In this document: piece after piece, positions 1 through 6,407 of the stretch
How positions within the stretch are numbered: position 1 is the stretch's first letter
Layout of the letters: each line of letters begins with the position of its first letter
Source of the DNA: Inovirus M13
Reading direction: 5' to 3' (one strand)
Sequence record: NC_003287.2
DNA: 6,407 nt
Program-made: the position numbers and the translations under genes
The notes under the pieces: generated by a model
Databases searched by the model: none
The model's input: the letters and a program-made list of their open reading frames with translations, nothing else
Told to the model about the DNA's origin: nothing

Positions 1-831
1 AACGCTACTACTATTAGTAGAATTGATGCCACCTTTTCAGCTCGCGCCCCAAATGAAAATATAGCTAAACAGGTTATTGACCATTTGCGAAATGTATCTA
101 ATGGTCAAACTAAATCTACTCGTTCGCAGAATTGGGAATCAACTGTTACATGGAATGAAACTTCCAGACACCGTACTTTAGTTGCATATTTAAAACATGT
201 TGAGCTACAGCACCAGATTCAGCAATTAAGCTCTAAGCCATCCGCAAAAATGACCTCTTATCAAAAGGAGCAATTAAAGGTACTCTCTAATCCTGACCTG
301 TTGGAGTTTGCTTCCGGTCTGGTTCGCTTTGAAGCTCGAATTAAAACGCGATATTTGAAGTCTTTCGGGCTTCCTCTTAATCTTTTTGATGCAATCCGCT
401 TTGCTTCTGACTATAATAGTCAGGGTAAAGACCTGATTTTTGATTTATGGTCATTCTCGTTTTCTGAACTGTTTAAAGCATTTGAGGGGGATTCAATGAA
501 TATTTATGACGATTCCGCAGTATTGGACGCTATCCAGTCTAAACATTTTACTATTACCCCCTCTGGCAAAACTTCTTTTGCAAAAGCCTCTCGCTATTTT
601 GGTTTTTATCGTCGTCTGGTAAACGAGGGTTATGATAGTGTTGCTCTTACTATGCCTCGTAATTCCTTTTGGCGTTATGTATCTGCATTAGTTGAATGTG
701 GTATTCCTAAATCTCAACTGATGAATCTTTCTACCTGTAATAATGTTGTTCCGTTAGTTCGTTTTATTAACGTAGATTTTTCTTCCCAACGTCCTGACTG
801 GTATAATGAGCCAGTTCTTAAAATCGCATAA
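1..831 (+). CDS. gII: Gene II, C-terminal part (pII, rolling-circle replication initiator; full protein 410 aa when circularised)
   Basis: Frame 1 is open from base 1 to TAA ending at 831 (NATTISRIDATFSARAPNENIAKQVIDHLRNVSNG...PVLKIA). The ORF-track call 85..831 uses a TTG alternative start and is a truncation artefact. Confidence 0.95.
   Translation, partial: NATTISRIDATFSARAPNENIAKQVIDHLRNVSNGQTKSTRSQNWESTVTWNETSRHRTLVAYLKHVELQHQIQQLSSKPSAKMTSYQKEQLKVLSNPDLLEFASGLVRFEARIKTRYLKSFGLPLNLFDAIRFASDYNSQGKDLIFDLWSFSFSELFKAFEGDSMNIYDDSAVLDAIQSKHFTITPSGKTSFAKASRYFGFYRRLVNEGYDSVALTMPRNSFWRYVSALVECGIPKSQLMNLSTCNNVVPLVRFINVDFSSQRPDWYNEPVLKIA
412..417 (+). promoter_or_regulatory. Candidate -10 hexamer (TATAAT) of the gene X promoter inside gene II
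   Basis: Perfect TATAAT at 412..417, about 80 nt upstream of the gene X start; possible -35 TTGATG at 387..392 with a long 19-nt spacer. The position fits an internal promoter known in Ff phages, but the exact hexamers are inferred. Confidence 0.35.
496..831 (+). CDS. gX: Gene X (pX, 111 aa), translated in frame from an internal start of gene II; needed for ssDNA accumulation
   Basis: Internal ATG at 496 in the gene II frame, preceded by a strong Shine-Dalgarno GAGGGGG at 484..490; product MNIYDDSAVLDAIQSK... is identical to the pII C-terminus. Known nested gene in Ff phages. Confidence 0.85.
   Translation: MNIYDDSAVLDAIQSKHFTITPSGKTSFAKASRYFGFYRRLVNEGYDSVALTMPRNSFWRYVSALVECGIPKSQLMNLSTCNNVVPLVRFINVDFSSQRPDWYNEPVLKIA
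802..807 (+). promoter_or_regulatory. Candidate -10 hexamer (TATAAT) of a gene V promoter at the 3' end of gene II
   Basis: Perfect TATAAT at 802..807, about 36 nt upstream of the gene V ATG; no clear -35 seen. Inferred. Confidence 0.3.
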
Positions 832-842
832 GGTAATTCACA

Positions 843-1106
843 ATGATTAAAGTTGAAATTAAACCATCTCAAGCCCAATTTACTACTCGTTCTGGTGTTT
901 CTCGTCAGGGCAAGCCTTATTCACTGAATGAGCAGCTTTGTTACGTTGATTTGGGTAATGAATATCCGGTTCTTGTCAAGATTACTCTTGATGAAGGTCA
1001 GCCAGCCTATGCGCCTGGTCTGTACACCGTTCATCTGTCCTCTTTCAAAGTTGGTCAGTTCGGTTCCCTTATGATTGACCGTCTGCGCCTCGTTCCGGCT
1101 AAGTAA
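843..1106 (+). CDS. gV: Gene V (pV, 87 aa), ssDNA-binding protein that coats progeny plus strands and represses gene II translation
   Basis: ORF 843..1106 gives MIKVEIKPSQAQFTTRSGVSRQGKPYSLNEQLCYVDLGNEYPVLVKITLDEGQPAYAPGLYTVHLSSFKVGQFGSLMIDRLRLVPAK, recognised as Ff gene 5 protein; SD AAGG at 830..833. Confidence 0.97.
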   Translation: MIKVEIKPSQAQFTTRSGVSRQGKPYSLNEQLCYVDLGNEYPVLVKITLDEGQPAYAPGLYTVHLSSFKVGQFGSLMIDRLRLVPAK

Positions 1107-1107
1107 C

Positions 1108-1209
1108 ATGGAGCAGGTCGCGGATTTCGACACAATTTATCAGGCGATGATACAAATCTCCGTTGTACTTTGTTTCGCGCTTGGTATAATCGCTGGGGGT
1201 CAAAGATGA
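1108..1209 (+). CDS. gVII: Gene VII (pVII, 33 aa), minor coat protein at the virion tip that emerges first
   Basis: ATG at 1108, one nt after the gene V stop, gives MEQVADFDTIYQAMIQISVVLCFALGIIAGGQR with TGA at 1207..1209. Too short for the ORF track. Canonical position between V and IX. Confidence 0.85.
   Translation: MEQVADFDTIYQAMIQISVVLCFALGIIAGGQR
1163..1190 (+). promoter_or_regulatory. Strong sigma70-type promoter upstream of genes IX/VIII (-35 TTGTAC, 16-nt spacer, -10 TATAAT)
   Basis: TTGTAC at 1163..1168 and perfect TATAAT at 1185..1190, inside gene VII and about 110 nt upstream of gene VIII. Consistent with the known strong promoter driving major coat protein expression. Confidence 0.6.
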
Positions 1210-1304
1210 GTGTTTTAGTGTATTCTTTCGCCTCTTTCGTTTTAGGTTGGTGCCTTCGTAGTGGCATTACGTATTTTACCCGTTTAATGGAAACTTCCTC
1301 ATGA
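1206..1304 (+). CDS. gIX: Gene IX (pIX, 32 aa), minor coat protein at the pVII end of the virion
   Basis: ATG at 1206 overlaps the gene VII stop (ATGA); product MSVLVYSFASFVLGWCLRSGITYFTRLMETSS, stop TGA at 1302..1304 overlapping the gene VIII ATG. Too short for the ORF track. Confidence 0.85.
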   Translation: MSVLVYSFASFVLGWCLRSGITYFTRLMETSS

Positions 1305-1522
1305 AAAAGTCTTTAGTCCTCAAAGCCTCTGTAGCCGTTGCTACCCTCGTTCCGATGCTGTCTTTCGCTGCTGAGGGTGACGATCCCGCAAAAGCGGCCT
1401 TTAACTCCCTGCAAGCCTCAGCGACCGAATATATCGGTTATGCGTGGGCGATGGTTGTTGTCATTGTCGGCGCAACTATCGGTATCAAGCTGTTTAAGAA
1501 ATTCACCTCGAAAGCAAGCTGA
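1301..1522 (+). CDS. gVIII: Gene VIII (pVIII major coat protein precursor, 73 aa: 23-aa signal peptide + 50-aa mature protein)
   Basis: MKKSLVLKASVAVATLVPMLSFA / AEGDDPAKAAFNSLQASATEYIGYAWAMVVVIVGATIGIKLFKKFTSKAS: signal peptide, acidic N-terminus, hydrophobic helix and basic C-terminus are the classic major coat protein. Asn at mature position 12 (AAC 1403..1405). Confidence 0.97.
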   Translation: MKKSLVLKASVAVATLVPMLSFAAEGDDPAKAAFNSLQASATEYIGYAWAMVVVIVGATIGIKLFKKFTSKAS

Positions 1523-1537
1523 TAAACCGATACAATT

Positions 1538-1565
1538 AAAGGCTCCTTTTGGAGCCTTTTTTTTT
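1538..1565 (+). terminator. Rho-independent terminator after gene VIII
   Basis: GC stem GGCTCC (1541..1546) / GGAGCC (1551..1556) with a TTTT loop, followed by a run of 9 T (1557..1565); located directly after the gene VIII stop. Confidence 0.85.
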
Positions 1566-1578
1566 GGAGATTTTCAAC

Positions 1579-2853
1579 ATGAAAAAATTATTATTCGCAA
1601 TTCCTTTAGTTGTTCCTTTCTATTCTCACTCCGCTGAAACTGTTGAAAGTTGTTTAGCAAAACCCCATACAGAAAATTCATTTACTAACGTCTGGAAAGA
1701 CGACAAAACTTTAGATCGTTACGCTAACTATGAGGGTTGTCTGTGGAATGCTACAGGCGTTGTAGTTTGTACTGGTGACGAAACTCAGTGTTACGGTACA
1801 TGGGTTCCTATTGGGCTTGCTATCCCTGAAAATGAGGGTGGTGGCTCTGAGGGTGGCGGTTCTGAGGGTGGCGGTTCTGAGGGTGGCGGTACTAAACCTC
1901 CTGAGTACGGTGATACACCTATTCCGGGCTATACTTATATCAACCCTCTCGACGGCACTTATCCGCCTGGTACTGAGCAAAACCCCGCTAATCCTAATCC
2001 TTCTCTTGAGGAGTCTCAGCCTCTTAATACTTTCATGTTTCAGAATAATAGGTTCCGAAATAGGCAGGGGGCATTAACTGTTTATACGGGCACTGTTACT
2101 CAAGGCACTGACCCCGTTAAAACTTATTACCAGTACACTCCTGTATCATCAAAAGCCATGTATGACGCTTACTGGAACGGTAAATTCAGAGACTGCGCTT
2201 TCCATTCTGGCTTTAATGAGGATCCATTCGTTTGTGAATATCAAGGCCAATCGTCTGACCTGCCTCAACCTCCTGTCAATGCTGGCGGCGGCTCTGGTGG
2301 TGGTTCTGGTGGCGGCTCTGAGGGTGGTGGCTCTGAGGGTGGCGGTTCTGAGGGTGGCGGCTCTGAGGGAGGCGGTTCCGGTGGTGGCTCTGGTTCCGGT
2401 GATTTTGATTATGAAAAGATGGCAAACGCTAATAAGGGGGCTATGACCGAAAATGCCGATGAAAACGCGCTACAGTCTGACGCTAAAGGCAAACTTGATT
2501 CTGTCGCTACTGATTACGGTGCTGCTATCGATGGTTTCATTGGTGACGTTTCCGGCCTTGCTAATGGTAATGGTGCTACTGGTGATTTTGCTGGCTCTAA
2601 TTCCCAAATGGCTCAAGTCGGTGACGGTGATAATTCACCTTTAATGAATAATTTCCGTCAATATTTACCTTCCCTCCCTCAATCGGTTGAATGTCGCCCT
2701 TTTGTCTTTAGCGCTGGTAAACCATATGAATTTTCTATTGATTGTGACAAAATAAACTTATTCCGTGGTGTCTTTGCGTTTCTTTTATATGTTGCCACCT
2801 TTATGTATGTATTTTCTACGTTTGCTAACATACTGCGTAATAAGGAGTCTTAA
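1579..2853 (+). CDS. gIII: Gene III (pIII, 424 aa with 18-aa signal peptide), minor coat/adsorption protein with N1 and N2 domains, Gly-rich linkers and C-terminal anchor
   Basis: ATG at 1579 with SD GGAG at 1566..1569; product [85 protein letters not shown](EGGGS)n... The ORF-track start at 1549 is a TTG extension into the terminator and is rejected. Confidence 0.95.
1834..1893 (+). repeat. Four tandem 15-bp coding repeats (GAGGGTGGYGGYWCT) encoding (EGGGS)3-EGGGT, Gly-rich linker 1 of pIII between N1 and N2
   Basis: Direct reading: gagggtggtggctct gagggtggcggttct gagggtggcggttct gagggtggcggtact. Confidence 0.9.
2284..2400 (+). repeat. Tandem 12-15-bp coding repeats encoding GGGS/EGGGS units, Gly-rich linker 2 of pIII between N2 and the C-terminal domain
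   Basis: Direct reading: protein [39 protein letters not shown]; DNA units ggcggcggctct / ggtggtggttct / gagggtggcggttct and variants. Confidence 0.9.
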
Positions 2854-2855
2854 TC

Positions 2856-3194
2856 ATGCCAGTTCTTTTGGGTATTCCGTTATTATTGCGTTTCCTCGGT
2901 TTCCTTCTGGTAACTTTGTTCGGCTATCTGCTTACTTTTCTTAAAAAGGGCTTCGGTAAGATAGCTATTGCTATTTCATTGTTTCTTGCTCTTATTATTG
3001 GGCTTAACTCAATTCTTGTGGGTTATCTCTCTGATATTAGCGCTCAATTACCCTCTGACTTTGTTCAGGGTGTTCAGTTAATTCTCCCGTCTAATGCGCT
3101 TCCCTGTTTTTATGTTATTCTCTCTGTAAAGGCTGCTATTTTCATTTTTGACGTTAAACAAAAAATCGTTTCTTATTTGGATTGGGATAAATAA
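2856..3194 (+). CDS. gVI: Gene VI (pVI, 112 aa), hydrophobic minor coat protein at the pIII end of the virion
   Basis: ATG at 2856 with SD AGGAG at 2843..2847; product MPVLLGIPLLLRFLGFLLVTLFGYLLTFLKKGFGKIAIAISLFLALIIGLNSILVGYLSDISAQLPSDF..., start placed 2 nt after the gene III stop. Confidence 0.95.
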   Translation: MPVLLGIPLLLRFLGFLLVTLFGYLLTFLKKGFGKIAIAISLFLALIIGLNSILVGYLSDISAQLPSDFVQGVQLILPSNALPCFYVILSVKAAIFIFDVKQKIVSYLDWDK

Positions 3195-3195
3195 T

Positions 3196-4242
3196 ATGGC
3201 TGTTTATTTTGTAACTGGCAAATTAGGCTCTGGAAAGACGCTCGTTAGCGTTGGTAAGATTCAGGATAAAATTGTAGCTGGGTGCAAAATAGCAACTAAT
3301 CTTGATTTAAGGCTTCAAAACCTCCCGCAAGTCGGGAGGTTCGCTAAAACGCCTCGCGTTCTTAGAATACCGGATAAGCCTTCTATATCTGATTTGCTTG
3401 CTATTGGGCGCGGTAATGATTCCTACGATGAAAATAAAAACGGCTTGCTTGTTCTCGATGAGTGCGGTACTTGGTTTAATACCCGTTCTTGGAATGATAA
3501 GGAAAGACAGCCGATTATTGATTGGTTTCTACATGCTCGTAAATTAGGATGGGATATTATTTTTCTTGTTCAGGACTTATCTATTGTTGATAAACAGGCG
3601 CGTTCTGCATTAGCTGAACATGTTGTTTATTGTCGTCGTCTGGACAGAATTACTTTACCTTTTGTCGGTACTTTATATTCTCTTATTACTGGCTCGAAAA
3701 TGCCTCTGCCTAAATTACATGTTGGCGTTGTTAAATATGGCGATTCTCAATTAAGCCCTACTGTTGAGCGTTGGCTTTATACTGGTAAGAATTTGTATAA
3801 CGCATATGATACTAAACAGGCTTTTTCTAGTAATTATGATTCCGGTGTTTATTCTTATTTAACGCCTTATTTATCACACGGTCGGTATTTCAAACCATTA
3901 AATTTAGGTCAGAAGATGAAATTAACTAAAATATATTTGAAAAAGTTTTCTCGCGTTCTTTGTCTTGCGATTGGATTTGCATCAGCATTTACATATAGTT
4001 ATATAACCCAACCTAAGCCGGAGGTTAAAAAGGTAGTCTCTCAGACCTATGATTTTGATAAATTCACTATTGACTCTTCTCAGCGTCTTAATCTAAGCTA
4101 TCGCTATGTTTTCAAGGATTCTAAGGGAAAATTAATTAATAGCGACGATTTACAGAAGCAAGGTTATTCACTCACATATATTGATTTATGTACTGTTTCC
4201 ATTAAAAAAGGTAATTCAAATGAAATTGTTAAATGTAATTAA
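3196..4242 (+). CDS. gI: Gene I (pI, 348 aa), inner-membrane assembly/export ATPase with N-terminal Walker A motif
   Basis: ATG at 3196 immediately after the gene VI stop (TAA 3192..3194); product MAVYFVTGKLGSGKTLVSVGKIQDK... with Walker A GKLGSGKT (about nt 3217..3240) and a membrane-spanning segment near LCLAIGFASAF. The ORF-track start at 3148 is a TTG extension overlapping gene VI. Confidence 0.93.
   Translation: MAVYFVTGKLGSGKTLVSVGKIQDKIVAGCKIATNLDLRLQNLPQVGRFAKTPRVLRIPDKPSISDLLAIGRGNDSYDENKNGLLVLDECGTWFNTRSWNDKERQPIIDWFLHARKLGWDIIFLVQDLSIVDKQARSALAEHVVYCRRLDRITLPFVGTLYSLITGSKMPLPKLHVGVVKYGDSQLSPTVERWLYTGKNLYNAYDTKQAFSSNYDSGVYSYLTPYLSHGRYFKPLNLGQKMKLTKIYLKKFSRVLCLAIGFASAFTYSYITQPKPEVKKVVSQTYDFDKFTIDSSQRLNLSYRYVFKDSKGKLINSDDLQKQGYSLTYIDLCTVSIKKGNSNEIVKCN
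3916..4242 (+). CDS. gXI: Gene XI (pXI, 108 aa), in-frame internal restart within gene I (from pI Met241); assembly protein partner of pI
   Basis: ATG at 3916 in the gene I frame (720 nt = 240 codons after the gene I start); product MKLTKIYLKKFSRVLCLAIGFASAF... Known nested gene in Ff phages; the internal initiation cannot be proven from sequence alone. Confidence 0.75.
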   Translation: MKLTKIYLKKFSRVLCLAIGFASAFTYSYITQPKPEVKKVVSQTYDFDKFTIDSSQRLNLSYRYVFKDSKGKLINSDDLQKQGYSLTYIDLCTVSIKKGNSNEIVKCN

Positions 4243-5500
4243 TTTTGTTTTCTTGATGTTTGTTTCATCATCTTCTTTTGCTCAGGTAATTGAAATGAAT
4301 AATTCGCCTCTGCGCGATTTTGTAACTTGGTATTCAAAGCAATCAGGCGAATCCGTTATTGTTTCTCCCGATGTAAAAGGTACTGTTACTGTATATTCAT
4401 CTGACGTTAAACCTGAAAATCTACGCAATTTCTTTATTTCTGTTTTACGTGCTAATAATTTTGATATGGTTGGTTCAATTCCTTCCATAATTCAGAAGTA
4501 TAATCCAAACAATCAGGATTATATTGATGAATTGCCATCATCTGATAATCAGGAATATGATGATAATTCCGCTCCTTCTGGTGGTTTCTTTGTTCCGCAA
4601 AATGATAATGTTACTCAAACTTTTAAAATTAATAACGTTCGGGCAAAGGATTTAATACGAGTTGTCGAATTGTTTGTAAAGTCTAATACTTCTAAATCCT
4701 CAAATGTATTATCTATTGACGGCTCTAATCTATTAGTTGTTAGTGCACCTAAAGATATTTTAGATAACCTTCCTCAATTCCTTTCTACTGTTGATTTGCC
4801 AACTGACCAGATATTGATTGAGGGTTTGATATTTGAGGTTCAGCAAGGTGATGCTTTAGATTTTTCATTTGCTGCTGGCTCTCAGCGTGGCACTGTTGCA
4901 GGCGGTGTTAATACTGACCGCCTCACCTCTGTTTTATCTTCTGCTGGTGGTTCGTTCGGTATTTTTAATGGCGATGTTTTAGGGCTATCAGTTCGCGCAT
5001 TAAAGACTAATAGCCATTCAAAAATATTGTCTGTGCCACGTATTCTTACGCTTTCAGGTCAGAAGGGTTCTATCTCTGTTGGCCAGAATGTCCCTTTTAT
5101 TACTGGTCGTGTGACTGGTGAATCTGCCAATGTAAATAATCCATTTCAGACGATTGAGCGTCAAAATGTAGGTATTTCCATGAGCGTTTTTCCTGTTGCA
5201 ATGGCTGGCGGTAATATTGTTCTGGATATTACCAGCAAGGCCGATAGTTTGAGTTCTTCTACTCAGGCAAGTGATGTTATTACTAATCAAAGAAGTATTG
5301 CTACAACGGTTAATTTGCGTGATGGACAGACTCTTTTACTCGGTGGCCTCACTGATTATAAAAACACTTCTCAAGATTCTGGCGTACCGTTCCTGTCTAA
5401 AATCCCTTTAATCGGCCTCCTGTTTAGCTCCCGCTCTGATTCCAACGAGGAAAGCACGTTATACGTGCTCGTCAAAGCAACCATAGTACGCGCCCTGTAG
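4220..5500 (+). CDS. gIV: Gene IV (pIV, 426 aa precursor with about 21-aa signal peptide), outer-membrane secretin channel for phage extrusion
   Basis: ATG at 4220 with SD AAGG at 4208..4211; product MKLLNVINFVFLMFVSSSSFA/QVIEMNNSPLRDFVTWYSKQSG...; C-terminal half (…VPFITGR…GQTLLLGGL…VPFLSKIPLIGLLF…) looks like the secretin domain shared with GspD/PilQ. Overlaps the gene I end by 23 nt. The ORF-track start at 4181 is a TTG extension. Confidence 0.95.
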   Translation: MKLLNVINFVFLMFVSSSSFAQVIEMNNSPLRDFVTWYSKQSGESVIVSPDVKGTVTVYSSDVKPENLRNFFISVLRANNFDMVGSIPSIIQKYNPNNQDYIDELPSSDNQEYDDNSAPSGGFFVPQNDNVTQTFKINNVRAKDLIRVVELFVKSNTSKSSNVLSIDGSNLLVVSAPKDILDNLPQFLSTVDLPTDQILIEGLIFEVQQGDALDFSFAAGSQRGTVAGGVNTDRLTSVLSSAGGSFGIFNGDVLGLSVRALKTNSHSKILSVPRILTLSGQKGSISVGQNVPFITGRVTGESANVNNPFQTIERQNVGISMSVFPVAMAGGNIVLDITSKADSLSSSTQASDVITNQRSIATTVNLRDGQTLLLGGLTDYKNTSQDSGVPFLSKIPLIGLLFSSRSDSNEESTLYVLVKATIVRAL

Positions 5501-5577
5501 CGGCGCATTAAGCGCGGCGGGTGTGGTGGTTACGCGCAGCGTGACCGCTACACTTGCCAGCGCCCTAGCGCCCGCTC
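5499..5577 (+). other. Packaging (morphogenetic) signal hairpin, the first element of the intergenic region
   Basis: GC-rich imperfect inverted repeat immediately after the gene IV stop (TAG 5498..5500): gtagcggcgcattaagcgcggcggg...ccagcgccctagcgcccgctcc. Position and sequence match the Ff packaging signal also present in f1-ori phagemids. Boundaries approximate. Confidence 0.7.
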
Positions 5578-5589
5578 CTTTCGCTTTCT

Positions 5590-5760
5590 TCCCTTCCTTT
5601 CTCGCCACGTTCGCCGGCTTTCCCCGTCAAGCTCTAAATCGGGGGCTCCCTTTAGGGTTCCGATTTAGTGCTTTACGGCACCTCGACCCCAAAAAACTTG
5701 ATTTGGGTGATGGTTCACGTAGTGGGCCATCGCCCTGATAGACGGTTTTTCGCCCTTTGA
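5590..5760 (+). promoter_or_regulatory. Minus-strand (complementary-strand) replication origin, hairpins B/C; host RNA polymerase primer-synthesis site
   Basis: Structured GC-rich non-coding segment between the packaging signal and the plus-strand origin (…ggctttccccgtcaagctctaaatcgggggctccctttagggttccgatttagtgctttacggcacctcgacccc…), recognised as Ff/f1 ori sequence. Boundaries approximate. Confidence 0.6.
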
Positions 5761-5765
5761 CGTTG

Positions 5766-5910
5766 GAGTCCACGTTCTTTAATAGTGGACTCTTGTTCCA
5801 AACTGGAACAACACTCAACCCTATCTCGGGCTATTCTTTTGATTTATAAGGGATTTTGCCGATTTCGGCCTATTGGTTAAAAAATGAGCTGATTTAACAA
5901 AAATTTAACG
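5766..5910 (+). promoter_or_regulatory. Plus-strand (viral-strand) rolling-circle origin: pII nick site between 5780 and 5781, core hairpins and downstream AT-rich enhancer domain
   Basis: Inverted repeat gagtccac…gtggactc around the sequence ttcttt^aatagtggactcttgttccaaactggaacaaca, with a second small hairpin tgttccaaactggaaca. This matches the canonical Ff pII recognition/nick sequence, followed by an AT-rich region. Boundaries of the enhancer domain approximate. Confidence 0.8.
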
Positions 5911-5933
5911 CGAATTTTAACAAAATATTAACG

Positions 5934-5962
5934 TTTACAATTTAAATATTTGCTTATACAAT
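5934..5962 (+). promoter_or_regulatory. Gene II promoter (-35 TTTACA, 17-nt spacer, -10 TACAAT)
   Basis: TTTACA at 5934..5939, 17-nt spacer, TACAAT at 5957..5962, about 45 nt upstream of the gene II ATG at 6006; near-consensus sigma70 promoter. Confidence 0.65.
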
Positions 5963-6005
5963 CTTCCTGTTTTTGGGGCTTTTCTGATTATCAACCGGGG
6001 TACAT

Positions 6006-6407
6006 ATGATTGACATGCTAGTTTTACGATTACCGTTCATCGATTCTCTTGTTTGCTCCAGACTCTCAGGCAATGACCTGATAGCCTTTGTAGACCTCTC
6101 AAAAATAGCTACCCTCTCCGGCATGAATTTATCAGCTAGAACGGTTGAATATCATATTGATGGTGATTTGACTGTCTCCGGCCTTTCTCACCCTTTTGAA
6201 TCTTTACCTACACATTACTCAGGCATTGCATTTAAAATATATGAGGGTTCTAAAAATTTTTATCCTTGCGTTGAAATAAAGGCTTCTCCCGCAAAAGTAT
6301 TACAGGGTCATAATGTTTTTGGTACAACCGATTTAGCTTTATGCTCTGAGGCTTTATTGCTTAATTTTGCTAATTCTTTGCCTTGCCTGTATGATTTATT
6401 GGATGTT
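6006..6407 (+). CDS. gII: Gene II, N-terminal part (pII replication initiator nickase); partial in linear view, continues in frame at 1..831 across the circular junction
   Basis: ATG at 6006 gives MIDMLVLRLPFIDSLVCSRLSGNDLIAFVDLSKIATLSG..., the recognised pII N-terminus. It runs to the window end with no stop; 402 nt = 134 codons, so it joins frame 1 at position 1. A -35/-10 promoter lies just upstream. Confidence 0.95.
   Translation, partial: MIDMLVLRLPFIDSLVCSRLSGNDLIAFVDLSKIATLSGMNLSARTVEYHIDGDLTVSGLSHPFESLPTHYSGIAFKIYEGSKNFYPCVEIKASPAKVLQGHNVFGTTDLALCSEALLLNFANSLPCLYDLLDV

Follow-up and report, generated by a model that had tools for sequence, protein, structure and literature searches.

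Gene II of Inovirus M13 is divided by the ends of its linear sequence record at the unique HincII/HindII site

Characterisation of gene II of the Ff phages M13, f1, and fd, together with the product pX, the replication origin, and the operator bound by gene V protein, dates back to the late 1970s and 1980s. A comparable strategy is used by the gene A protein of phage phiX174 and by the HUH/Rep_trans Rep proteins of plasmids, which nick an origin, become linked to the DNA through a tyrosine-5'-phosphate, and transfer the strand in a reaction that closes the circle. This overall logic is common to those proteins and to the gene II protein (pII), although no sequence relationship between them was detectable here; an hmmscan of pII at E-values up to 10 returned no match to an HUH or Rep_trans family.

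In the M13 and f1 records (JX412914 and J02448), gene II is given the coordinates 6006..6407 joined to 1..831, exactly as in the sequence described in this work, and in the fd record (J02451) it lies at 6007..6408 joined to 1..831 and likewise encodes 410 amino acids. The internal gene X, the origin, and the operator of these three phages are also the same as those found here, with no difference of substance. The pII proteins of phage IKe (NC_002014) and of the Erwinia phages PEar1/2/4/6 align to ours in one piece over residues 1-406 with 60% identity. These phages share with M13 the nested arrangement of genes II and X, the residue Tyr197, and the start methionine of pX, while the C-terminus of the IKe protein is slightly longer. 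Their records, unlike those of M13, f1, and fd, open a short distance upstream of gene II, with the coding sequence running from base 7, and the gene is therefore unsplit in them.

The stretch of DNA analysed here (referred to as the window) comprises all 6407 nucleotides of record NC_003287.2, assigned to Inovirus M13. It is equal to JX412914 (Inovirus M13) in length and in first base and is 99.8% identical to it over 1..6407, with 15 substitutions and zero indels; identity to the f1 records is 98.6-99.2% and to fd 97.0%. Circular topology is annotated in the records of M13, f1, and fd. On our reading, held with a probability of about 99%, the window represents the entire single-stranded DNA genome of the Ff phage M13, a circle of 6407 nt linearised at GTT^AAC within gene II. 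The circularity in this reading is taken from other records and from the biology of Ff phages and is probable on those grounds, as the window by itself is no proof that the molecule is physically circular.

The circularised sequence contains a single GTTAAC hexamer, at 6405, which is also its sole GTYRAC (HincII/HindII) site. The left half of this site (GTT, 6405..6407) stands at the end of the record and the right half (AAC, 1..3) at its beginning, where it forms codon 135 (Asn) of pII; neither half is assigned to a strand. The end of the record is thus the blunt cleavage position, and this position is the boundary between codons Val134 and Asn135. Nucleotide 1 was reportedly placed at the unique HindII site by Beck et al. 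in 1978 for fd and by van Wezenbeek et al. in 1980 for M13. The cut point is non-arbitrary: it is the unique HincII/HindII site, the historical zero of Ff numbering.

Among other explanations, the one that survives best is that the break point was set arbitrarily by software or by a submitter, and that its agreement with GTT^AAC is a matter of chance. However, of the 6407 positions at which the circle could have been opened, a single one is where the sole GTYRAC site is cleaved, and it is there that the record is broken. Moreover, all the classical M13, f1, and fd records, which were deposited by different laboratories over decades, share the same first base, whereas the records of recent isolates follow other rules for their first base and begin at other positions. 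A chance agreement is very unlikely, and nothing was found against the explanation that M13 was linearised at GTT^AAC. The split of gene II is a long-known bookkeeping convention, already described and ordinary. It matters only as quality control, in that linear scans miss or truncate gene II, and annotation pipelines must handle the M13 record as circular; the finding at the junction opens no biological question.

The 5' part of gene II (6006..6407, plus strand) starts with the ATG at 6006-6008 and comprises 402 nt, equal to 134 codons without a stop, which encode residues Met1 to Val134 of the replication initiator pII; the same interval is the first gene II piece in JX412914 and J02448. The 3' part (1..831, plus strand) is open in frame 1 from base 1 to the TAA at 829-831 and provides codons 135-410, that is, 276 codons, followed by the stop. 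In the preliminary description, an open frame of exactly 134 codons from ATG 6006 to the end of the window, and an open frame 1 from base 1 to a stop at 831, had already been claimed, and both are found in the sequence as described there. When 6006..6407 and 1..831 are joined, the resulting 1233 nt are translated into 410 amino acids, with one stop codon, at the terminus. As 6407 mod 3 equals 2, the linear record places the 5' part in nominal frame 3 and the 3' part in nominal frame 1, and it is only the length of the tail, a whole number of codons, that keeps them in phase.

The nearest in-frame stop upstream of gene II is a TGA at 5985, and the first start codon after it is ATG 6006. Measured from stop to stop, the open frame extends over 416 codons and is the third-longest on the circular molecule, while the other two frames of the joined segment contain 25 and 56 stops. 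Under a base-composition model, the chance of 410 open codons is approximately 6e-11. When the joined segment was shuffled 20,000 times, it stayed open in none of the cases, and the longest open run reached 207 codons. The open frame of the joined gene II is far beyond chance. ATG 6015 (Met4) was also considered as the start of gene II and was rejected in favour of ATG 6006, which no other start separates from the upstream stop and which has GGGG 5 nt upstream; in addition, the N-terminus MIDML is kept in IKe, and the residues M1, D3, and L5 are invariant.

The mechanical list of open reading frames contains 85..831 (248 aa, with a TTG start) and nothing for 6006..6407. The latter is absent because frames that run off an end of the record go unlisted, so the split accounts for the truncated 85..831 entry being the only one for gene II, as had been proposed earlier. 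The TTG at 85 simply happens to be the first codon of a start type that a linear scan meets in frame 1. The 248-aa frame at 85..831 is an artefact of linear scanning without biological standing.

The contiguity of the junction can be followed in independent genomes. A query of 600 nt, composed of 6108..6407 and 1..300, was searched in the phage collection. In the classical records it is found in two 300-nt places, at either end of the record. In six Ff isolates that were sequenced independently and whose records start elsewhere (FfViolet, FfAmethyst, FfIris, FfLilac, FfLavender, and Copypasta), it is present whole, ungapped and in a single piece, with 93-99.8% identity, inside the annotated replication initiation gene. 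The intact 1233-nt replication gene that bears the junction is the coding sequence 506..1738 in FfAmethyst and 226..1458 in Copypasta. The junction of FfAmethyst, composed of GATTTATTGGATGTT immediately followed by AACGCTACTACTATT, is the same as that of the window, with 30 identical nucleotides, and reads contiguously GATGTT/AACGCT. Across its joined ends, the window reads GGATGTTAACGCTAC. The same junction was sought in collections that contain no Ff genomes and are therefore uninformative on this point: the 600-nt query had no match in complete E. coli genomes or in PLSDB plasmids, and an exact 32-mer of the junction had none in IMG/VR.

Rotation of the FfAmethyst genome (6407 nt) by 907 nt brings it into register with the window along the full 6407 nt; the alignment shows 98 substitutions and is free of gaps. 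No terminal repeat or prefix-suffix overlap was found in the window. Taken together, the ungapped alignment and the lack of such a repeat indicate that nothing is missing or duplicated at the window ends. These results bear on a second alternative, in which the molecule is circular but was imperfectly circularised, with a few bases lost or duplicated by the assembler, so that the seamless look of the join is an accident and the true gene differs at the junction. Terminal overlaps or gaps are indeed common in assembled circular contigs. Nevertheless, the window has no overlapping ends, its length of 6407 is common to the M13 and f1 records and FfAmethyst, and its ends coincide exactly with a blunt restriction cut, which speaks for a deliberate convention and against an assembler break. 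This alternative is refuted by the alignment to rotated FfAmethyst, with its zero indels and identical 30-nt junction, and its probability is well below that of an arbitrary break.

The products of the two halves, and of their junction, were also compared with known proteins. The joined protein, which the preliminary description had proposed to obtain by concatenation and to align to pII, is 100% identical to the pII proteins of FfAmethyst and FfViolet over all 410 aa, and the head fragment (1..831), compared with pII across the records of M13, f1, and fd, shows 99.3-100% identity over residues 135-410, the full 100% being reached in M13 and f1 records. Most of the homologues listed, which are replication proteins of IKe, Erwinia PEar phages, Pseudomonas filamentous phages, and Dulem viruses, align with the joined protein as a single piece over its residues 1-400 or more, at identities down to 29%. 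An alignment of six homologous sequences has no gap at residues 134/135, and the invariant residues flanking the junction in it are D133 on one side and T137, D143, T145, and S147 on the other.

The tail fragment alone (6006..6407) matches positions 1-110 of the 232 in the Pfam profile Phage_CRI (E = 9e-37), and the head fragment alone matches positions 113-231 of the same profile and 1-87 of the 88 in G2P_X_C. In the joined protein, Phage_CRI (PF05144) is matched in one stretch over 1-231 of 232 with 261 bits (cut-off 21.7), and G2P_X_C (PF05155) with 120.9 bits (cut-off 25). The joined protein also matches the TIGR01629 rep_II_X profile over 1-405 of 407 positions with 465 bits (cut-off 29; E = 2e-139), as well as PHROG 702, named 'replication protein', with E = 7e-127. 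No Pfam family other than Phage_CRI and G2P_X_C had an E-value below 0.1; the matches to Sod_Ni and HTH_psq (E of about 0.1) are below their cut-offs and were dismissed as noise. In phmmer searches of PDB chains with pII, and with a profile of the six sequences, no significant match was obtained, and the sole structure returned, 2fxa (Hpr), was rejected as not significant (E = 0.64).

At the nucleotide level, the joined gene differs from gene II of FfAmethyst at four positions, one in the tail and three in the head, and all of these differences are synonymous. Such a pattern in both halves is what would be expected from selection acting on one frame. With a continuous frame of 410 codons on the circle and no indel relative to the relatives at the junction, the joined protein is, as judged from its sequence, the Ff (Inovirus M13) gene II protein, in agreement with every feature testable here. 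The weakest of the alternatives, in which a linear molecule or contig has real termini and carries unrelated end fragments that are in phase by accident, may draw on the window alone giving no direct evidence of circularity and on a prior of about 1 in 3 for an in-phase join, but it is refuted for practical purposes, and is the least probable of all, as the end fragments are complementary halves of Phage_CRI, six other genomes run through the junction without a break, an intact pII is known with 100% identity to the joined protein, every close record is annotated as a circle, and 410 open codons are so improbable by chance. The claim of the preliminary description that the molecule is a circle cut inside gene II is borne out by the circular annotation, the unbroken junction in six isolates, the ungapped alignment after rotation, the one-piece alignment of the joined protein to intact pII proteins and homologues, and the complementary Pfam halves.

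Two features lie within the joined gene. Gene X (496..831, plus strand) starts at an internal in-frame ATG at 496, preceded by GAGGGGG (484-490) as its own ribosome-binding site, and encodes the 111-aa pX, which is identical to the C-terminus of pII. Gene X is annotated in M13, f1, fd, FfAmethyst, and IKe, and Met300, the start residue of pX, is invariant in the homologue alignment. The second feature is the tyrosine codon at 187..189 (plus strand), which specifies residue 197 of the joined protein. Tyr197 is invariant across Ff, IKe, Pseudomonas phage 42-1, and Dulem virus 52, in an alignment of six homologues with identity down to 40%. A catalytic role is ascribed to this residue in PMC5405960, in a statement for which that paper cites Asano et al. 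1999.

The region upstream of gene II contains elements that may control its expression. A Shine-Dalgarno-like GGGG (5997..6000, plus strand) is located 5 nt upstream of the start codon, within the sequence CCGGGGTACATATG at 5995-6008. A Shine-Dalgarno mutation at position 6813 of M13KE corresponds, by the 815-nt offset, to wild-type position 5998 (PMC5405960). Further upstream, at 5969..5984 (plus strand), lies the 16-nt operator of gene II mRNA, GTTTTTGGGGCTTTTC, which has an exact and single match in the window; gene V protein was reported to bind this sequence and to repress the translation of pII (PMC5405960). A sigma-70-like promoter match, composed of TTTACA, a 17-nt spacer, and TACAAT, is present at 5934..5962 (plus strand) and agrees with the consensus at 10 of 12 positions. 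It is the strongest such site within 5480-6407 and, on the grounds of its consensus match, is a putative promoter upstream of gene II.

The target of pII, the core of the plus-strand origin (Domain A), is located at 5766..5819 (plus strand), in the intergenic region. The nick-site sequence TTCTTT^AATAGTGGACTC is found there at 5774-5792, and the inverted arms GAGTCCAC (5766-5773) and GTGGACTC (5785-5792) flank T5780/A5781. According to PMC5405960, the nick is made between T5780 and A5781, the pII footprint covers 5774-5813, and Domain A covers 5769-5819; the nick-site coordinates in the window agree with that paper. In the fd record, rep_origin is annotated at its position 5782. The cognate origin of the joined protein is thus present in the same molecule.

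These elements fit the following mode of action. In the real molecule, gene II is one continuous gene of 1233 nt, with the HincII/HindII site lying between codons 134 and 135, and its 410-aa product pII is the initiator of rolling-circle replication. The protein nicks the plus strand between T5780 and A5781 and becomes covalently joined to the 5' end via Tyr197; after one round of rolling-circle synthesis, it transfers this 5' end to the new 3' end, giving a closed single-stranded circle. The internal in-frame ATG at 496 allows the production of pX, and gene V protein represses the translation of pII at the operator 5969-5984. The nick, the Tyr197 link, and the transfer and closure steps are described in PMC5405960, and the nicking-closing activity of f1 and fd pII on supercoiled RF DNA is established in literature which that paper cites. 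The biochemical steps rest on that literature, while the sequences compared here themselves show the reading frame, the unbroken junction, membership of the family, and the presence of the origin, the operator, and the catalytic tyrosine.

Several sequence variants distinguish the window from related records. Codon 40 of gene II (6123-6125) is ATG in the window (Met40, G6125), as in f1, fd, and FfAmethyst, whereas JX412914 ('WT variety Rutgers') has ATT (Ile40, T6125). The change G6125T (Met40Ile) was described in M13mp1 and was inherited by M13mp18 and M13KE (PMC5405960). The 'wild-type' isolate of JX412914 therefore carries an allele of the vector lineage.

The start codon of gene III, at 1579 in the window, is ATG, while GTG is present in M13 Rutgers, f1 (J02448), fd (J02451), and FfAmethyst. 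The ATG may be genuine variation or may be peculiar to this record; an exact 33-mer with this ATG is absent from IMG/VR, a collection without Ff genomes. In gene IV, six substitutions occur within 37 nt (4453-4489) relative to M13 Rutgers, f1, and FfAmethyst, and at all six positions the window has the fd allele. Such a small fd-like patch in an otherwise M13-type genome suggests either recombination or a shared old polymorphism. That the window represents a slightly mosaic lineage, in which the gene III ATG and the gene IV patch result from real recombination among Ff phages and not from historical sequencing differences, seems rather doubtful. Neither variant has a bearing on the junction in gene II.

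Gene I (3196..4242) and gene IV (4220..5500) overlap by 23 nt. In FfAmethyst, a nested in-frame gene XI is located inside gene I at its positions 4823..5149, equivalent to about 3916..4242 of the window. Genes I and XI form a second nested pair resembling genes II and X, and gene XI is unannotated in the M13 Rutgers, f1, and fd records.
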